Positions 9,921-25,827 are shown, counted from the stretch's first letter. The stretch is 32,000 nt of DNA from Candidatus Jordarchaeales archaeon (GCA_038889235.1 JAWAHN010000001.1:995636-1027635); one strand, 5' to 3'. Translations and numbers: made by a program. Notes: generated from the sequence alone by a model not told the origin.

Positions 9921-11105
9921 CTAGAAGCATCTGTGAATTACTCCTACGCCTCCCTCTTGATACTCTTTCTTTGTAACCCACATCTTCTGGAACGTCCTTA
10001 ACGAAGCTAATATTGATCCTCCGATCCAGACACTATATTGTCTCTCGGGCGGCGCAATTATCTTTATTTCAACATTTTCTGGAACTAGCTCTGATATCTC
10101 TTTGTGCAATCTTTCCTTTAAACCTGGAAACATTGTTGAGCCGCCTGAAAGGACTATGTTAGCGTATAACTCTCTTCTCAAGTCGATGTCGCACTTCTTA
10201 ATAGTCTCGACTATTGCTTCATCTAGCGGCGGTGCATCTAATCCGATAACTCCCGGGTTGAAGAAGACTTCTGGTGCTAGGAATCTCTCGGCACCAATAG
10301 TAATAGTTTCGCCATCAGGTAGTACGTATGTTTTTTCTATGCCTGAAACTTTCTCTGCAAGTTTGAGCTCCTTTTCAGGGTCCAATGCCACATAGCAGAG
10401 CTTTTCCTTAATGTCCCTGACTATTTCTCTTTCAGCTGTTGAAACGAAGCTGTAACCGCGTTGTCTTAGGAGCCTTCGCAAGTACTCAGTTATATCCCTC
10501 CCTGCAAGATCTATCCTGGTAATGGCGTGTGTTAACGCGAAACCTTCATAGATTGGAACTATGTGTGTTACTCCATCTCCCGAGTCTACCACTAGACCCG
10601 TTGTCCTTCCAGACGCATAGAGCGAGAGAACAGCTTGCATTGCAACATATATAGCCGGTGTATTAAATGTTTCAAACATTATTTCAGCCATTTTTTCCCT
10701 GTTTTCACGCGGGTTCAGCGGCGGCTCCGTTAGTAATACAGGGTGCTCTGAAGGGTCGACTCTCAAGTCGTTGAAGAACGTGTAGTGCCAGATTTTTTCC
10801 ATAGCATCCCAATCTGTAACTACACCATGCTCTATTGGGTAAACTAACCTGAGTACTCCTCGCAGGTTAAGTGCCTCCTCTCCAATGTAATATTCTCTCG
10901 TGTAGTGTTCTACGTCCGTCATTATTGACGCATACTTCGGATATCCTATACAAGTTGGCCATACGGAACGAGGCTGATCCTCCCCTGCAAACCCATTCTT
11001 AGTTAACCCTGTTCCATTGTCTATTACTATAGGTTTCGCAGCAATCATTTCTTCTTCGCGTGCCATTTTCTCATATCTCCTAACATTTTTTAAAGGTCTC
11101 TTCAT
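9921..11105 (-). CDS. Actin-family protein closely resembling eukaryotic actin/lokiactin; true start may be the internal MAREEEM
   Basis: [142 protein letters not shown], and C-terminal HRCF. Confidence 0.97.
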
Positions 11106-11312
11106 TCTTCCCCATTTTTCGAAAGAAATTATTGCCTTATGTTCTATTTTAATTTTTTGAATGTCATTTTTGTCAACAATATAGTTGATAACTACACAAT
11201 TTTTTCTCTTTTAATGGCGATCTTCTCAAATACGAGATGTTTAGCATGCGTGGTGCTTATATACGCTTCTGGAGCTTCAGCAGTAAAGGATGTACGAGGA
11301 GGTTTTTAAAAT

Positions 11313-11492
11313 TTGGAGTTAGTTAGAGACGAAAAAGGATCTCCCATGGTGGAAGAGGCCATCCTCATCGGTCTGTCAGTTTTGGGGTTAGCTATAATGC
11401 TAAATATAATGTTCGGCGTCTTTAATTGGTCAGGAAATTTACTAACGAACTTAATCAATTATCTAAACCACCTATTTGGCAGCATCTTCTAA
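11313..11492 (+). CDS. Predicted 59-aa single-pass membrane microprotein (TTG start; alternative ATG at 11346)
   Basis: gaggagg lies upstream of TTG. Translation MELVRDEKGSPMVEEAILIGLSVLGLAIMLNIMFGVFNWSGNLLTNLINYLNHLFGSIF has one strong hydrophobic helix and an amphipathic tail. Confidence 0.5.
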   Translation: MELVRDEKGSPMVEEAILIGLSVLGLAIMLNIMFGVFNWSGNLLTNLINYLNHLFGSIF

Positions 11493-11618
11493 TTCCATAA
11501 ACTTAACTTTTCAGGAAAAGGCAAAGCAAAAATAAAATATTGTCTTTTTCCTTTATTCCATTCTTAGTTTTAGTTTTGCGCATAGGTCATACATCAAAGT
11601 AGTTAAGAAGGTGGGCAT

Positions 11619-20662: not shown

Positions 20663-21214
20663 TTGGCTTGGACTATTTGGCTCTTCGGTCTACCCGGCTC
20701 TGGTAAAAGCACTATTGCTCACGAGCTGCAGGCTATACTAAAGGAGCGAGGTATTAATGCGCAAATTCTCTCGACAGACATTCTAAGAAAGGTTGTAACT
20801 CCCAAACCAACATATTCGGAAGAAGAACGAGAGATCGTTTATGGCACTCTGGTCTTTATCGCCCGTTTGCTTAACGATAATGGTGTTAACGTCATAATTG
20901 ATGCCACGGCTAATAGGAATGCTTACAGGGAAAGAGGAAAAAAAGAAATCAAAAACATAATTTTCGCTTATGTTAAATGCCCCCTAGAAGTTTGCATACA
21001 ACGCGAAGCAACAAGGCAGGAAACTTACGGTGCACCTAGGAGAATATATGAAAAAGGTTTGACTGGGGAGAGCAAAACCGTTCCGGGTTTAGGTGTTCCA
21101 TTCGAGGAGCCTGAAAACCCGGATGTTGTTGTCGAGTCTGACAAGCTCTCCCCCAGAGAGTGCGCTTTAAAGATTCTCGACACTTTAATGAAAAGATTTT
21201 ATGCATCTAACTAG
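20663..21214 (+). CDS. APS kinase-like P-loop kinase
   Basis: IWLFGLPGSGKSTIAHELQ, LSTDILRK, and FAYVKCPLEVCIQR...ETYGAPRRIYEKG, resembling CysC. Confidence 0.7.
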   Translation: MAWTIWLFGLPGSGKSTIAHELQAILKERGINAQILSTDILRKVVTPKPTYSEEEREIVYGTLVFIARLLNDNGVNVIIDATANRNAYRERGKKEIKNIIFAYVKCPLEVCIQREATRQETYGAPRRIYEKGLTGESKTVPGLGVPFEEPENPDVVVESDKLSPRECALKILDTLMKRFYASN

Positions 21215-22293
21215 TAGCTCTTGAGATAGGAGTTCACTTCCTTTGGATTGAACTCTTCGCACTCAAGCACGTTGTTAATGAAGTTTAAGAGTTTTCTCCG
21301 TGTTTCTGGGGTAAGTGTTGGATACCATTGAGGGTGAGATATCACTGAGCCCCGCCAGGCATAAAATGGCTGAACCACTTTGAGGAGTTCTTCGTCTCCT
21401 GTTTTTTCGAGGTAATTCTCGTAAAATAGGTCGAAAAGTTTTTTAAATGGGTCTGCAAGGTGGCCGAAAGTAAGCACACTGAAGAATATGTAGTTTATAG
21501 TCATAGCGGTCACGTCGTCAGCTGGCTCTCCCCACTCACCTCTGCTTCTGTCTAAAAGCGTGAAATCCGTTCCCTCTCTAAAAAGAACGTTCCAAGGGTG
21601 GTAATCCCCGTGAACCACACTTAACCTGTGAGCACACTTTTTGAGTTTCCACCTCCACTCAACGCACTTTTTCTCGATCCTCAGTAAGTCTTCTTCCGTC
21701 GCATACGCGGGGTTAGGGGTATATGTGTCAAGCAGCCCCATGAGCCCCTCTCCGTGACCAACTAAGTCCCTTATTCTTCTAATGTAGATGTGAGGTGCGT
21801 CCTTTTTCTCTTTATGAATTTCCACCAGGTAGTTGGAGAGGGCTATTGCTCTATCGATATCTAACTGTCTCAATTTCTTCTCCTCAGAAAGCCTATCTAG
21901 GTCGAATTTGTACAAATTTCCCTCAGCGTACTCCATGAGAACGAAAAACTCTTCCACGTTCCCGACAGAAACTATCCCCCCTTCCCTGGTTACCCCTCCA
22001 CAGTCAAAGGAGCGAACATGCCTGGGAAGCTTATTGTACGTTTGGTGAGCCAGTAAAACAACTTGTGCTCTGTCCGGCATAAATTCGTGACCATAAGGTC
22101 CAGGAACAACAAAGCTCATAACCATCTTTTTTACTTCATTCCCCACCTTCGCCTCTATGAGGCGAGGAACACCGTAGCCTACTTCCTTTATGTCCTCTTT
22201 CTCTCCACCAAGTCTCTTAACATTCAACACCTCAACACTTTTTTCAAAGACTCGAGTAAGATATTCTTCAAGTTTCTCTTTTGAAATAGACAA
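21211..22293 (-). CDS. Phosphotransferase (aminoglycoside phosphotransferase/choline kinase-like fold)
   Basis: Brenner-type motif VVHGDYHPWNVLF followed by TLLDRSRGEWGEPADDV. Confidence 0.75.
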   Translation of the reverse strand: MSISKEKLEEYLTRVFEKSVEVLNVKRLGGEKEDIKEVGYGVPRLIEAKVGNEVKKMVMSFVVPGPYGHEFMPDRAQVVLLAHQTYNKLPRHVRSFDCGGVTREGGIVSVGNVEEFFVLMEYAEGNLYKFDLDRLSEEKKLRQLDIDRAIALSNYLVEIHKEKKDAPHIYIRRIRDLVGHGEGLMGLLDTYTPNPAYATEEDLLRIEKKCVEWRWKLKKCAHRLSVVHGDYHPWNVLFREGTDFTLLDRSRGEWGEPADDVTAMTINYIFFSVLTFGHLADPFKKLFDLFYENYLEKTGDEELLKVVQPFYAWRGSVISHPQWYPTLTPETRRKLLNFINNVLECEEFNPKEVNSYLKSY

Positions 22294-22481
22294 TGAAACT
22301 ACACCCCCTCAAAACCTGTAGTCACTTAACTCGGGTACTTTAATTGAGAAATACCTTTCGTTAAAAGCTTAATCGTTAAACGTGTGGTTTAATTTCTTCA
22401 AGAAAAGAAGAACGGAACACGCAAAGTTAAAATATTGTTTTCACTCTTCAAACACTCTAGAAGGGCGCCCGGGTCGCCTAG

Positions 22482-22502
22482 AAGAATTTCTACTTTGGGC
22501 AA
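22482..22502 (+). other. Predicted tRNA intron 1 (21 nt) in the D-loop
   Basis: Central helix GCCU/GGGC (22476-22479/22497-22500), bulges AG|A (22480-22482) and AA|U (22501-22503), outer pairs C22475-G22504 and U22474-G22505. The inner hairpin is weak. Boundaries could shift by a nucleotide or two. Confidence 0.7.
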
Positions 22503-22516
22503 TGGTAGGGCGGTGG

Positions 22517-22539
22517 AGCCCCTAAAAAAGGGCGCCGTA
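22517..22539 (+). other. Predicted tRNA intron 2 (23 nt) between positions 30 and 31
   Basis: Full hBHBh': outer GGG/CUC (22508-22510/22541-22543), central CGGU/GCCG (22511-22514/22534-22537), 5' bulge GG|A, 3' bulge UA|G, inner GCCC/GGGC (22518-22521/22530-22533). Confidence 0.85.
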
Positions 22540-22546
22540 GCTCGAG

Positions 22547-22577
22547 ATCTTTCCCAAAGAAATTTGGGGGAAGATAA
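22547..22577 (+). other. Predicted tRNA intron 3 (31 nt) at canonical position 37/38
   Basis: Hairpin AUCUUUCCC.../...GGGGGAAGAU capped by a GAAA loop. 3' bulge AA|A (22576-22578) abuts anticodon stem CCCAC. The central 4-bp helix is poor, so this is a relaxed motif. Excision gives loop CUCGAGA with a fully paired 5-bp stem. Confidence 0.75.
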
Positions 22578-22590
22578 ACCCACTGGCGGA

Positions 22591-22606
22591 TTCCGTATGG
22601 ACGCAA
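22591..22606 (+). other. Predicted tRNA intron 4 (16 nt) in the variable arm
   Basis: Inner UCC/GGA (22592-22594/22599-22601), central GCG/CGC (22586-22588/22602-22604), bulges GA|U and AA|G, outer U22584-A22609 and G22585-C22608. Excision leaves variable arm GGCGG-AGCAC-CCGCC. Confidence 0.6.
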
Positions 22607-22628
22607 GCACCCGCCGCGCGCGTTCGAA

Positions 22629-22659
22629 TGGAAAAGGGAGATTCACTCCCTCCCGGGCA
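22629..22659 (+). other. Predicted tRNA intron 5 (31 nt) in the T-loop (59/60)
   Basis: Outer T-stem GCGCG/CGCGC, 3' bulge CA|U (22658-22660), central UUCG/CGGG (22623-22626/22654-22657, two wobbles), 5' bulge AA|U (22627-22629), inner hairpin containing GGGAG-AUUCA-CUCCC. Confidence 0.88.
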
Positions 22660-22688
22660 TCGCGCCCCGGGCGCCACCATCCTTTAAC

Positions 22689-23186
22689 TCAGTCTAGTAC
22701 ATATCCTAGCTTCTTTACTAGTTCTCTCCTCTCCTCTTTCTGTTTCTCGTTTTCTACTGCTGTGACACTAGTCCCATCAACGGCCCCAATAATTGCCCGC
22801 CCAAGATCAGTTTCCGCTACTAGTATTTGGACAGGGTTACCAGTTGCTACTATTATGTTGCATACTGCTGGGATCCTTTTAAGGGTGTTTAGCACATTGA
22901 TTGGATAAGCGTTTCTGACTAAGACAACATATGCATGTGAAGCTCCTATGGCTAAAGCGTTCTTTGCAGCTAGACTCTTCAACCTCTCGTCATTTCCATT
23001 GACTCTTACGAGACGTGGTGCTGCCTCGTTCATTGCTACGCCACATTTAATTCCGGGGACTGACGTTAGCAGCTCTCTAAAAATATTGTCGACAGTGTAT
23101 ATTGTAAAGTTGGCCATCCCGCAGATAAATTGATCATCCTTCTCCTTCTCTATTGGGACGACGTGAATTTTAACACTCATGCCCAA
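22689..23186 (-). CDS. Adenosine-specific kinase-like family protein
   Basis: PGIKCGVAMNEAAPRLVRVNGND, IGASHAYVVLVRNAYPINVLNTLKRIPAVCNIIVATGNPVQILVAET, and GRAIIGAVDG. Confidence 0.75.
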   Translation of the reverse strand: MGMSVKIHVVPIEKEKDDQFICGMANFTIYTVDNIFRELLTSVPGIKCGVAMNEAAPRLVRVNGNDERLKSLAAKNALAIGASHAYVVLVRNAYPINVLNTLKRIPAVCNIIVATGNPVQILVAETDLGRAIIGAVDGTSVTAVENEKQKEERRELVKKLGYVLD

Positions 23187-23254: not shown

Positions 23255-24523
23255 TTAGACCGAAATTTTCGCTGAAAACGGTTCTCCAAGCAGTTTTTCT
23301 GAAGCTTTAGCGACAACTTCTCTATACTTTTCGTCCGTGTAAACTCTTATAATATTCAAAAATCCCTTCATTACTGACACTATGTTCGACACATCTTCTA
23401 ACCGTAGTACCCTCTTTCTTCCGTCCTTCCCTCTTTGAACTATCGGCAAGTTTGCAGCGTCCTCATCCATAGTCCTGTGGTAGGGAACCGACGGCAAAGT
23501 CGGCACATCTATATAAACGTTTTCCACGTCAACGCCGGCTTCCTCCGCTATTTCCTCTTCAAGCCGTCTTTTAATCGCTTCTTTGGTCATAATTGCTGAA
23601 AAAACTCCGTTCCTCACGAAAAATATCTTTTCATAGGACACTTTTGGTAAATCTCGCATCTTGAGCCTCTCGATGTAAGGCTTAGATCCTTTACATTGAA
23701 GCATAAGCCCCCACACAGAGTAGTCATCATAGTTTAAGTACTCCTGAGGGCTCACCTTTACTATGTTTATCTCCTCATTAACTTTCTCCAGTCCTTTTTC
23801 CAAAAGAATTTGGGCAGCTCTAGACGCTTTATGAAAGTATATGCTCCTAAAAAGCTCAACCCTGGCCACAAGGAAGGATTCTAAAGTTGGTAGCGCCACT
23901 AAGTCTACCGCTAGATTTCCTTCGTGAAGGTCTATGGTGTGTATTAAGCGAAAGACGTCAATGGAGGCGAACTCTCCCCCAGTGTGGTAGGAGTCTCTCA
24001 GAATATAGTCGAGCTTGTCGCAATCAATCGAGCTAGAAATTATTTGACTTAAAAACTCTTTATGCTTCTTCTGTAGTTTACCTACGGCTAGAAGTGCTAC
24101 GTCTTTAGCGTTTAATCCAATCGACTCTACAGCGTCTTTGAGTGAAGTTTGCGTAATTATTTCCATAGTAATGTCTTCATGTGTCTTTTTAAGGTGCCTA
24201 ATAAGCAGCGCTTCAAACACATGGCTGAATGGACCATGCCCCACATCGTGAAGCAGCCCAGCTATTTTAATCATTTCTACAGCGTCGCTTTCTAAATACC
24301 CCTTACTCACTAAGGACTCGGCCATTAAATTTGAAAGGTGCATTACACCGAGGGAGTGTTCAAACCGTGTATGGACTCCCGCAGGGTAAACAAATTCGCT
24401 TCCAGCTAACTGCCTTATTCTACGCAATCTTTGGACAGCTTCTGTATCTATCACCTTTACTTCTTCGAAATCGCATTGAATGTAACCATAAATGGGATCT
24501 TTGATCAGGATTTTTTTCTTCAC
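23255..24523 (-). CDS. HD-domain phosphohydrolase, paralogue 1
   Basis: YPAGVHTRFEHSLGVMHLSNLM, GLLHDVGHGPFSHVFE, and DCDKLDYILRDSYHTG. Confidence 0.85.
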   Translation of the reverse strand: MKKKILIKDPIYGYIQCDFEEVKVIDTEAVQRLRRIRQLAGSEFVYPAGVHTRFEHSLGVMHLSNLMAESLVSKGYLESDAVEMIKIAGLLHDVGHGPFSHVFEALLIRHLKKTHEDITMEIITQTSLKDAVESIGLNAKDVALLAVGKLQKKHKEFLSQIISSSIDCDKLDYILRDSYHTGGEFASIDVFRLIHTIDLHEGNLAVDLVALPTLESFLVARVELFRSIYFHKASRAAQILLEKGLEKVNEEINIVKVSPQEYLNYDDYSVWGLMLQCKGSKPYIERLKMRDLPKVSYEKIFFVRNGVFSAIMTKEAIKRRLEEEIAEEAGVDVENVYIDVPTLPSVPYHRTMDEDAANLPIVQRGKDGRKRVLRLEDVSNIVSVMKGFLNIIRVYTDEKYREVVAKASEKLLGEPFSAKISV

Positions 24524-25827
24524 TCCCCTTTCTCTCCCCTATTCTTTCTAAAAATTTTTTCACATACTTTTTTGACATCTTCTACATATCTTTTTTCCGC
24601 GAAAACATAAACCTGCATCAGACTATTATACCTCGCTTTCAAGGTTTGAACTAAATTAGGGTCGTATTCCTCAAGTCCCCGCCCTCCTGCCCTCACCTCG
24701 CTCACTTCGGTGTAGTAATCTCGTGGTAGGTATATGAAAACATCTATTTCTGATATGTCAACATCGTGCTGAAGCTTCCTTACTTCCATAATTATTTCGT
24801 TTCGCAGCTCATGATAGTCGACCATCCCGAGGGCGGCTCTAGAAACTTTTTCTGGAAATTCGCTTATGTGTGCGGCATATGCTTTTTTGGGAATTCTACG
24901 GTATCTCAATCTGTATGCTAGCTTTCTAGCCTCCTCCACACTGCTATTTGCAAGCATATTTATGAACTGGTTGTCGTCGAGAAAAAATAGGTGATAGAAG
25001 TCATAATCTCCAAGCCCCTTTAGCAAGAGCTCTAATGCTAGACAACTGGCCGCCAGAGTGGTATGATGCAAGTAAACCTTTTTCATCATCCAGAAACGGC
25101 TTTCCAGAACGCTTATCGCTGCCCCTATAGCGTCAGTCCTGTTTTTTAATGCAAGCCTTCCATCCCCGTCTATTTCAAAAGAGGAGAAAATCCGGTCGTC
25201 ATAACTTTGAGGAACCCCTGTGTAGTAAGCATCTCTTTTCAAGTAGTCGAGTCGGTCAGCATCCAGCGGACCATTCACTAATTGGCTCAAGTATCTTGGC
25301 TTTCCCTCTCCCATTATTATTTCTACAATGCGGCTTCTGTCTCTCTTACCATACCCTTCTTCCTCCAAAACCTCTCTTAATGGTATTGCCGCATCCATTA
25401 TCTCTGGGTTCTCCTTCTGAAATTTCTTATAGCAAACTCCCTCAACTATTTCGCTAACAAATTTCTCATGCGGTGGTATTATGTTTGGATAAAACCTGCG
25501 AAAGAAGTCGGACACTACGTGGCTGAAAACAGGTGTTGCCACATCGTGAAGTAGCGCGGCAAGCCTTACAAATCTAACTTCTTCGTCGTCTAGTGGTATT
25601 TTTGACATCGAAATTATCTTATCGACGCACGCTCGTACGCCGAGGCTGTGCTGAAACCTTGAATGTTCTGCCCCTGGGTAAACTAAGAATGCGAAGTCAA
25701 GCTGCTTAATTCCTCTTAATCTTTGCAATTCGAACGTATCTAGGATCTTCTTGTCAGTGGAAGTTAGGAAAATATCACCCCAAACAGAGTCCCTTACTTT
25801 CCATTCTTCTGTGCGCAAAAACTTCAC
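24520..25827 (-). CDS. HD-domain phosphohydrolase, paralogue 2
   Basis: YPGAEHSRFQHSLGV, AALLHDVATPVFSHV, and DADRLDYLKRDAYYTG; overlaps paralogue 1 by 4 nt. Confidence 0.85.
   Translation of the reverse strand: MKFLRTEEWKVRDSVWGDIFLTSTDKKILDTFELQRLRGIKQLDFAFLVYPGAEHSRFQHSLGVRACVDKIISMSKIPLDDEEVRFVRLAALLHDVATPVFSHVVSDFFRRFYPNIIPPHEKFVSEIVEGVCYKKFQKENPEIMDAAIPLREVLEEEGYGKRDRSRIVEIIMGEGKPRYLSQLVNGPLDADRLDYLKRDAYYTGVPQSYDDRIFSSFEIDGDGRLALKNRTDAIGAAISVLESRFWMMKKVYLHHTTLAASCLALELLLKGLGDYDFYHLFFLDDNQFINMLANSSVEEARKLAYRLRYRRIPKKAYAAHISEFPEKVSRAALGMVDYHELRNEIIMEVRKLQHDVDISEIDVFIYLPRDYYTEVSEVRAGGRGLEEYDPNLVQTLKARYNSLMQVYVFAEKRYVEDVKKVCEKIFRKNRGEKGE

Follow-up and report, generated by a model that had tools for sequence, protein, structure and literature searches.

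A probable tRNA-Ser(CGA) gene with five short introns in an Asgard archaeon of the Jordarchaeia/Freyarchaeia group

Can a single transfer RNA (tRNA) gene be divided by as many as five introns? This question is raised by an intergenic gap of 395 nucleotides (nt) at positions 22294–22688 of a 32,000-nt stretch of DNA from a Candidatus (Ca.) Jordarchaeales archaeon (GCA_038889235.1 JAWAHN010000001.1:995636-1027635), here called the window, from whose first nucleotide all positions are counted. An original prediction, made from the sequence alone, had placed in this gap, at 22467–22676 on the plus strand, a tRNA-Ser(CGA) gene interrupted by five introns. Our analyses have found all of the elements of such a gene in order at these coordinates, and the spliced form is recognised as tRNA-Ser(CGA), covaries among related lineages and is bordered at most of its junctions by motifs of the bulge-helix-bulge (BHB) type. 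Hence, we consider it very probable that the locus is an Asgard tRNA-Ser(CGA) gene of six exons and five short archaeal-type introns, with a TATA-like promoter, splicing by an endonuclease and a ligase, and an order of excision imposed by refolding. The exons and introns are arranged as follows, with tRNA positions given by number.

22467–22481, plus strand: exon 1, with the acceptor 5' strand GCCCGGG (22467–73), U8, C9, the D-stem 5' strand GCCT, A14 and G15
22482–22502, plus strand: intron 1, 21 nt, in the D-loop between positions 15 and 16
22503–22516, plus strand: exon 2, with the remaining D-loop UGGUA, the D-stem 3' strand GGGC, G26 and positions 27–30 of the anticodon stem, GUGG
22517–22539, plus strand: intron 2, 23 nt, in the anticodon-stem 5' strand between positions 30 and 31
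22540–22546, plus strand: exon 3, a 7-nt micro-exon GCUCGAG, with G31, C32, U33, the anticodon C34-G35-A36 and G37
22547–22577, plus strand: intron 3, 31 nt, at the canonical 37/38 site (22548–22578 yields the same product)
22578–22590, plus strand: exon 4, with A38, the anticodon-stem 3' strand CCCAC (22579–83), U44, the variable-stem 5' strand GGCGG and the first loop base A
22591–22607, plus strand: intron 4, 17 nt, in the variable-arm loop (alternative register 22592–22606, 15 nt)
22608–22628, plus strand: exon 5, with the variable-loop remainder CAC, CCGCC, GC, the T-stem 5' strand GCGCG and T-loop positions 54–59, TTCGAA (CCGCC being the variable-stem 3' strand)
22629–22659, plus strand: intron 5, 31 nt, in the T-loop between positions 59 and 60
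22660–22676, plus strand: exon 6, with U60, the T-stem 3' strand CGCGC, the acceptor 3' strand CCCGGGC, G73 and an encoded CCA

Only after all five inserts have been excised do the exons form a valid tRNA-Ser(CGA). The introns amount to 121–123 nt and the spliced product to 87–89 nt, depending upon the register of intron 4, and the single values given earlier (122 nt of intron and an 88-nt product) fall within these ranges. In-silico splicing of the six exons yields an 87-nt sequence that ARAGORN calls tRNA-Ser(cga) at its default settings, with a 7-bp acceptor stem, a D stem of four pairs (one of them G-U) and 5-bp anticodon, T and variable stems. The product has the stems of a class-II tRNA, with a 7-nt anticodon loop containing U33 (CTCGAGA at 22541–47, into which intron 3 is inserted at 37/38) and a long paired variable arm, and it carries the conserved nucleotides T8, A14, G15, the GG of UGGUA, TTCGAAT, G73, CCA and the anticodon CGA.

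Standard search tools pass over the unspliced gene, as had been predicted for tRNA callers. ARAGORN reported no tRNA in the whole unspliced window, Rfam yielded no family at gathering score in the whole window or at E <= 10 in the region 22300–22760, and the Freyarchaeum orthologue described below is not in the published tRNAscan-SE/R2DT table. When ARAGORN was run on the unspliced region with its intron options switched on and its thresholds reduced, it proposed a tRNA-Ser(gga) with a 2-nt intron, a tRNA-Gly(gcc) and a tRNA-Trp with a 180-nt intron, all of which were rejected as sub-threshold artefacts. A small RNase P RNA or signal recognition particle RNA was ruled out by the lack of any Rfam match.

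The same tRNA-Ser(CGA) gene has been identified in eight further lineages (designated by L numbers), which were located through contigs encoding relatives of the adenosine kinase that flanks the gap and through two pattern scans. One of these scans, of genome contigs, employed a pattern that was too GC-rich, and 119 of the 120 loci that it listed are chance matches in high-GC bacteria, the sole true orthologue being L103, from a metagenome-assembled genome (MAG) titled Ca. Jordarchaeia. In all four of the lineages whose flanks were read (viz. the window, L006–L008, L009–L011, and L012–L014), the gene lies directly after the adenosine-kinase gene. L012–L014 represent the lineage of the complete Ca. 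Freyarchaeum deiterrae genome, in which the syntenic gene (L012 3693–3871, minus strand, equivalent to CP147778.1:1647848–1648026) is an orthologous tRNA-Ser(CGA) gene with three introns.

The number of inserts differs among the nine lineages: five are present in the window, L006, L009, L136 and L137, four in L103 and L139, and three in L135 and L012. Introns 1–3 are found in every lineage. The T-loop insert (intron 5) is missing from L103, L139, L135 and L012, where the loop reads TTCAAAT without interruption, and the variable-arm insert (intron 4), which is present in seven lineages, is missing from L012 (GGCGG-GTTT-CCGCC) and L135 (GGCGG-AATT-CCGCC). Introns 4 and 5 are thus dispensable, the insert-free orthologues being uninterrupted at exactly those points.

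The exon blocks are conserved across the nine lineages and the intron sequences and lengths diverge freely. Both the block containing the anticodon micro-exon (GCTCGAGATC) and the discriminator G73 are invariant, and the spliced sequence from each of the nine lineages is called tRNA-Ser(cga) by ARAGORN at default settings. In the alignment of the spliced sequences, 98.1% of the pair cells are standard pairs, and compensatory double changes are seen in six pairs (acceptor 3:70, 4:69 and 7:66; anticodon 29:41; T-stem 50:64 and 52:62), one example being 29:41, a G-C pair that is replaced by A-U in the Freyarchaeum-like lineages. Neither the observed paired percentage nor the covariation score was reached in any of 500 shuffles, and slid controls were 35–54% paired. 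The covarying helices form only across the proposed junctions, which makes them the strongest in-silico indication of insert removal.

The splice junctions were assessed by the standard BHB rule for archaea, in which the exon side comprises 4 nt of central helix, two bulge bases, the cut, the third bulge base and the inner helix, and the 3' side of the intron comprises 4 nt pairing with the exon, two bulge bases, the cut, the third bulge base and the outer helix. This rule reproduces exactly the published tRNAscan-SE intron of the Freyarchaeum tRNA-Asn (TCCG ag|a ... CGGA ta|T). The motifs that it gives for the five introns are listed below, with h denoting the outer helix and h' the inner helix.

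Intron 1: central helix GCCT/GGGC, 4/4 pairs; h 3 bp, h' 3 bp; bulges AG|A and AA|T; strict
Intron 2: central helix CGGT/GCCG, 4/4 pairs; h 3 bp (GGG/CTC), h' 4 bp (GCCC/GGGC); bulges GG|A and TA|G; strict
Intron 3: central helix CTCG/AGAT, 2/4 pairs; degenerate
Intron 4: central helix GGCG/CGCA, 3/4 pairs; h 1 bp, h' 3 bp (TCC/GGA); relaxed, HBh'
Intron 5: central helix TTCG/CGGG, 4/4 pairs; h 5 bp (the T stem), h' 3 bp; inner hairpin GGGAG/CTCCC; strict

Strict or relaxed BHB-type motifs are thus present at four of the five junction pairs. The gene contains five strict hBHBh' motifs, as compared with 0.48 +/- 0.78 in 500 dinucleotide shuffles, none of which reaches five. Three of these motifs are those of introns 1, 2 and 5, which the cloverleaf requires, and the other two are a shifted register of intron 2 (22518–22538), which is also strict by score but from which no cloverleaf results, and a motif lying inside intron 3. 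The claim of the original prediction that excision follows BHB-rule positions is borne out strictly for introns 1, 2 and 5 and in a relaxed form for intron 4, and it agrees poorly with intron 3.

Comparison of the lineages indicates that these motifs change in step with the exons. Intron 1 occupies the same position in all nine lineages, with lengths of 14–32 nt and unrelated hairpin sequences, and its central helix tracks an exon change at position 13 (GCCT/GGGC becoming GCCA/TGGC in L103). The central helix of intron 5 covaries likewise (TTCG/CGGG in the window and L137, TTCG/CGAG in L006, TTCA/TGAA in L009 and TTCA/TGAG in L136), and that of intron 2 has all four pairs in the five lineages of the window group and three of four in the four Freyarchaeum-like lineages. 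Within intron 2, L006 and L007 differ from L008, which encodes the same adenosine-kinase protein, by one base of the 3' bulge (GTG vs. GTA; window equivalent 22539), an unpaired position at which a variant is expected to be tolerated.

Several observations weigh against a gene with five introns. In the window group, only two of the four pairs can form in the central helix of intron 3 (C32–G35 with the intron's four bases that stop two short of the 3' cut). The 5' site of this intron is at the foot of a hairpin (ATCTTTCCC/GGGGAAGAT) that starts right at the 5' cut in the minimum-energy fold, rather than in a bulge. The motif of intron 4 is relaxed, lacking one of its central pairs and having an outer helix of 1 bp, and for the window group its register is uncertain by 1 nt at either end. 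With regard to decoding, UCG accounts for 11% of the serine codons in the open reading frames (ORFs) of the window and a decoder for it is therefore needed, which favors the gene, but tRNA-Ser(UGA) could in principle also read UCG, so that the gene need not be essential.

Intron 3 is the weakest point of the structure. It is found at the canonical 37/38 site in all nine lineages, and its central helix has three of four pairs in L137, L103, L139 and L012 and two of four in L135. In the minimum-energy fold the hairpin is succeeded by a bulge of 3 nt, AA|A, and this by the anticodon stem, so that the 3' site is in a proper helix-bulge-helix setting; an alternative fold is BHB-like with a poor central helix, its inner helix being formed by the G-run and TCTTTC. 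We sought a strict BHB of intron 3 for the 37/38 register as well as the equivalent 38/39 one, before and after the removal of intron 2, and none with 4/4 pairs gave the required product. A nested two-step route, in which 22556–22571 inside the intron would be excised first, was rejected in the same manner, as no 4/4 central helix with the required product was obtained. Relaxed junctions have been described for organisms with (alpha-beta)2 endonucleases (hBH and HBh'; PMC4090602) and for a red alga (hBH/BHL; PMC3728597), and the Asgard archaea are reported to possess an (alpha-beta)2 enzyme with an L1 loop that is associated with broad substrate specificity (PMC5829648). Because the Asgard enzyme is of this type, we infer that intron 3 is a decayed canonical intron that would be cut through a relaxed motif. 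It is doubtful, and in our estimation unlikely, that recognition of intron 3 bypasses the BHB altogether, with the endonuclease finding the 5' site independently of it, e.g., by measuring from the mature domain. Measurement from the mature domain is the mode of the eukaryotic splicing endonuclease, and the idea draws upon the conserved hairpin foot at both splice sites, the AA|A bulge and the invariant intron start ATC.

The strict hBHBh' motif inside intron 3 (ATC-TTTC-cc|a ... GGGG-ga|a-GAT) has its cuts after 22555 and before 22572, and L006, L009 and L136 allow its central and its outer helix to be drawn as well. Excision at these cuts would yield no BHB for the outer sites and would leave behind a mini-hairpin of 15 nt, and the motif may be an alternative register of the G-run pairing.

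A further possibility is that the gene is real and has four true introns, with the 17-nt insert retained as an enlarged variable arm or with intron 3 removed by a non-BHB route. The relaxed and ambiguous motif of intron 4, together with the differing lengths of class-II variable arms, would suit the first version, and the 2/4 central pairs of intron 3 the second. However, L012 and L135 do without the variable-arm insert and have an ordinary loop of 4 nt, and in L137, L103 and L139 its central helix is complete (GCGG/CCGC, 4/4), with 3-nt bulges that give loops of 4–5 nt once it is excised. The inner hairpin of this insert also changes in sequence while retaining its pairing (TCC/GGA, CG/CG, CC/GG, CT/AG), and a decoding tRNA cannot tolerate a 31-nt insert in its anticodon loop, so that intron 3 must be removed by some means. 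We therefore regard a gene of four introns as quite improbable.

Even less credence is given to five introns at the boundaries of the original prediction, which had placed introns 2 and 3 at 22518–22540 and 22549–22579 and had read the anticodon stem as GTGGA/TCCAC (GUGGA/UCCAC in RNA), with a pair A31-U39. The mature sequences of the two versions would be told apart by GUGGGCUCGAGACCCAC, from the register adopted here, and GUGGACUCGAGAUCCAC, from the earlier one; ARAGORN accepts both registers, the earlier also being called tRNA-Ser(cga), and A31 and T39 are conserved in all lineages. However, G31 and C39 are equally invariant, and the earlier boundaries do not lie at BHB positions: hand pairing gives 2/4 central pairs for intron 2, as against the complete 4/4 hBHBh' at 22517–22539 that is conserved in five lineages, and no BHB central helix for intron 3 either. 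In the BHB register the anticodon stem is GTGGG/CCCAC, with the pair G31-C39.

That the locus is a decaying tRNA pseudogene, another structured RNA or a protein-coding stretch that resembles a broken tRNA by chance is scarcely credible, since, although no standard tool recognises it, intron 3 is irregular and ORFs of 157 and 82 amino acids overlap the region, its exons are intact and covary over nine lineages with flanking protein identity down to 71%, its BHB central helices co-evolve with the exons, no Rfam family matches it even at the permissive threshold given above, and the two ORFs have no Pfam match and are broken in frame by indels among the orthologues, whose intron lengths differ by amounts that are not multiples of three. 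A protein-coding reading is thus ruled out, in accord with the earlier statement that the locus holds no plausible protein gene.

For the five-intron gene that we favor, a pathway of expression can be proposed from these sequence features. It would begin at the following element, to which GTTAAAATA or ATTAAAATA corresponds at a similar upstream distance in L006, L009 and L136.

22427–22434, plus strand: TATA-box-like element TTAAAATA, 32 nt upstream of tRNA position 1, a putative promoter

The gene would be transcribed from this promoter of its own, and the tRNA splicing endonuclease (EndA) would cut the BHB or relaxed helix-bulge-helix motifs that each intron forms with the adjoining exon. 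An RtcB-type RNA ligase would then join the exons and, with end processing, a class-II tRNA of 87–89 nt reading UCG codons would result. The motifs of introns 2 and 3 are in conflict: the central helix of intron 2 uses positions 25–28 (C25–U28), which are needed by the anticodon stem for intron 3, and its outer helix, G22–G24 with C32–C34, conflicts with the D and anticodon stems. Since these motifs are mutually exclusive, the precursor would have to refold between cuts and excision would probably be ordered, with intron 2 leaving before intron 3.

Two further features of the gene were observed. The sequence GGGCGCC occurs three times (22463–22469, 22530–22536 and 22669–22675), and its middle copy, together with GTAGCTC, resembles the start of another tRNA, though in reality it belongs to intron 2, as the strand which imitates the exon partner in that intron's BHB. 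Because of this triple occurrence a split or permuted tRNA was considered, and it was ruled out, the exons being collinear. The second feature is that the 5' leader GGC (22464–22466) can pair with G73-C74-C75 (22673–22675), extending the acceptor helix to 10 bp (GGCGCCCGGG/CCCGGGCGCC). L006 and L136 retain this extension, and so does L009, though with a G-U pair; in L137 two pairs of it are left, and the Freyarchaeum-like lineages lack it.

The gap that contains the gene is bounded by two protein-coding genes.

21211–22293, minus strand: APH-like protein gene, on one side of the gap
22689–23186, minus strand: adenosine kinase gene (PF04008), on the other side of the gap

Among the intergenic gaps of the window this one holds the only strongly GC-rich island, with 70% GC over 60 nt against a background of about 40%. 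The window matches contigs of four NCBI MAGs and one Logan assembly at 99.8–100% identity (e.g., GCA_038821275.1). Four of these five contigs contain the 395-nt gap, and they are 100% identical there; as the assemblies are independent, the gap is not an assembly artefact. An actin homologue is encoded in the neighborhood of the tRNA gene, Ca. Freyarchaeum deiterrae has the nearest named relative of the flanking adenosine kinase (71% identity), and one orthologue of the tRNA gene (L103) is in the Ca. Jordarchaeia MAG. On these grounds, the source organism is assigned, from its sequence, to the Asgard archaea of the Jordarchaeia/Freyarchaeia group, and orthology of its tRNA gene to intron-bearing genes of this clade is found both in L103 and in the synteny with CP147778.1.

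Some other genes of the window were also noted. Just past the adenosine kinase, two tandem paralogous genes at 23255–25827 (minus strand) encode HD-domain proteins of 422 and 435 amino acids (PF01966 and PF19276); the pair is kept in the close relatives L006 and L009, and Ca. Freyarchaeum (L012) has one only. At 9921–11618 there is an actin-family gene (PF00022 in the matching MAG contig) with an AT-rich gap of 513 nt upstream of it, and this gap has no Rfam match and no T-loop motif.

The gene belongs to a known kind, viz. tRNA genes with BHB introns, and to a clade in which such genes are already known to be extreme. The three complete genomes of Atabeyarchaeia and Freyarchaeia reported by Valentin-Alvarado et al. 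(2024, Nat Commun; PMC11291895) have introns in 92–95% of their tRNA genes, and more than half of these genes contain several introns, often at non-canonical positions. The maximum in their Supplementary Data 4 is four introns per gene, found in Arg-TCT, Ile2-CAT and Leu-GAG of Freyarchaeum and in Trp-CCA and Lys-TTT of Atabeyarchaeia (PMC11291895). The genes of these organisms resemble the present one in belonging to the same Asgard clade, in the gene neighborhood shared with Ca. Freyarchaeum deiterrae, in having near-universal and often multiple introns in the D-loop, anticodon stem and T-loop, and in that several of them were overlooked by tRNAscan-SE; they differ in reaching four introns at most, whereas five are present here, and the three-intron Ser(CGA) gene of Freyarchaeum is not listed among them. 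No tRNA-Ser(CGA) is given in any of the three published tRNA lists, for Freyarchaeum and two Atabeyarchaeia, and the Freyarchaeum list of 38 tRNAs has only AGA (25 bits), GGA and TGA as its Ser entries (PMC11291895, Supplementary Data 4).

Two other groups provide useful comparisons. In the Thermoproteales, as represented in PMC4090602, one pre-tRNA may carry BHB, HBh' and hBH introns at canonical and non-canonical sites, and the endonuclease is an (alpha-beta)2 enzyme with broad specificity; an example is the Pyrobaculum tRNA-Pro(UGG), which has its introns at 25/26, 37/38 and 56/57 (Sugahara et al., 2007/2008, as cited by PMC4090602). By that account, these organisms differ in phylum and in having at most three introns per gene, the variable-arm intron and the 7-nt anticodon micro-exon being features of the present gene. 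The nuclear tRNA genes of Cyanidioschyzon merolae likewise have up to three BHB-type introns across the cloverleaf with relaxed hBH/BHL junctions, and reverse transcription PCR has demonstrated that they are removed in an order that correlates with motif stability (PMC3728597). This alga differs in being a eukaryote with fewer introns per gene, and its splicing is experimentally confirmed, whereas that of the present gene is deduced from sequence. The original prediction had compared the gene with archaeal genes of two or three introns, mainly from Thermoproteales; this comparison is out of date in view of the four introns published for Freyarchaeia and Atabeyarchaeia (PMC11291895), although five still exceeds that number. 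A search of the full-text literature for a tRNA gene with five introns found none. The present gene thus exceeds the published maximum by one, and it is an increment over four introns rather than an isolated oddity.

The significance of the gene is moderate and rests on the record count and the micro-exon, on the series of three, four and five introns, and on a canonical intron whose BHB has largely decayed. As far as the literature found is concerned, it raises the upper limit of the fragmentation of an archaeal tRNA gene by cis-introns from four to five, with more than half of the gene consisting of intron and with the anticodon carried on an exon of 7 nt. It also supplies the tRNA-Ser(CGA) that the tRNA sets published for this Asgard group lack, and the apparent incompleteness of those sets therefore reflects in part the limits of tRNA callers. 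The orthologues with three, four and five introns, which are syntenic where flanks were read, constitute a natural series for the gain and loss of BHB introns, and this series bears on the degree of decay, seen in intron 3, that a splice motif can undergo in a gene that remains conserved. If intron 3 were in fact recognised independently of a BHB, it would represent a mechanistic bridge between archaeal and eukaryotic tRNA splicing, and this within a gene whose five excisions would also have to follow a fixed order around the 7-nt micro-exon of the anticodon. The gene is relevant to the question of how the splicing endonuclease has evolved among the archaeal relatives of eukaryotes.

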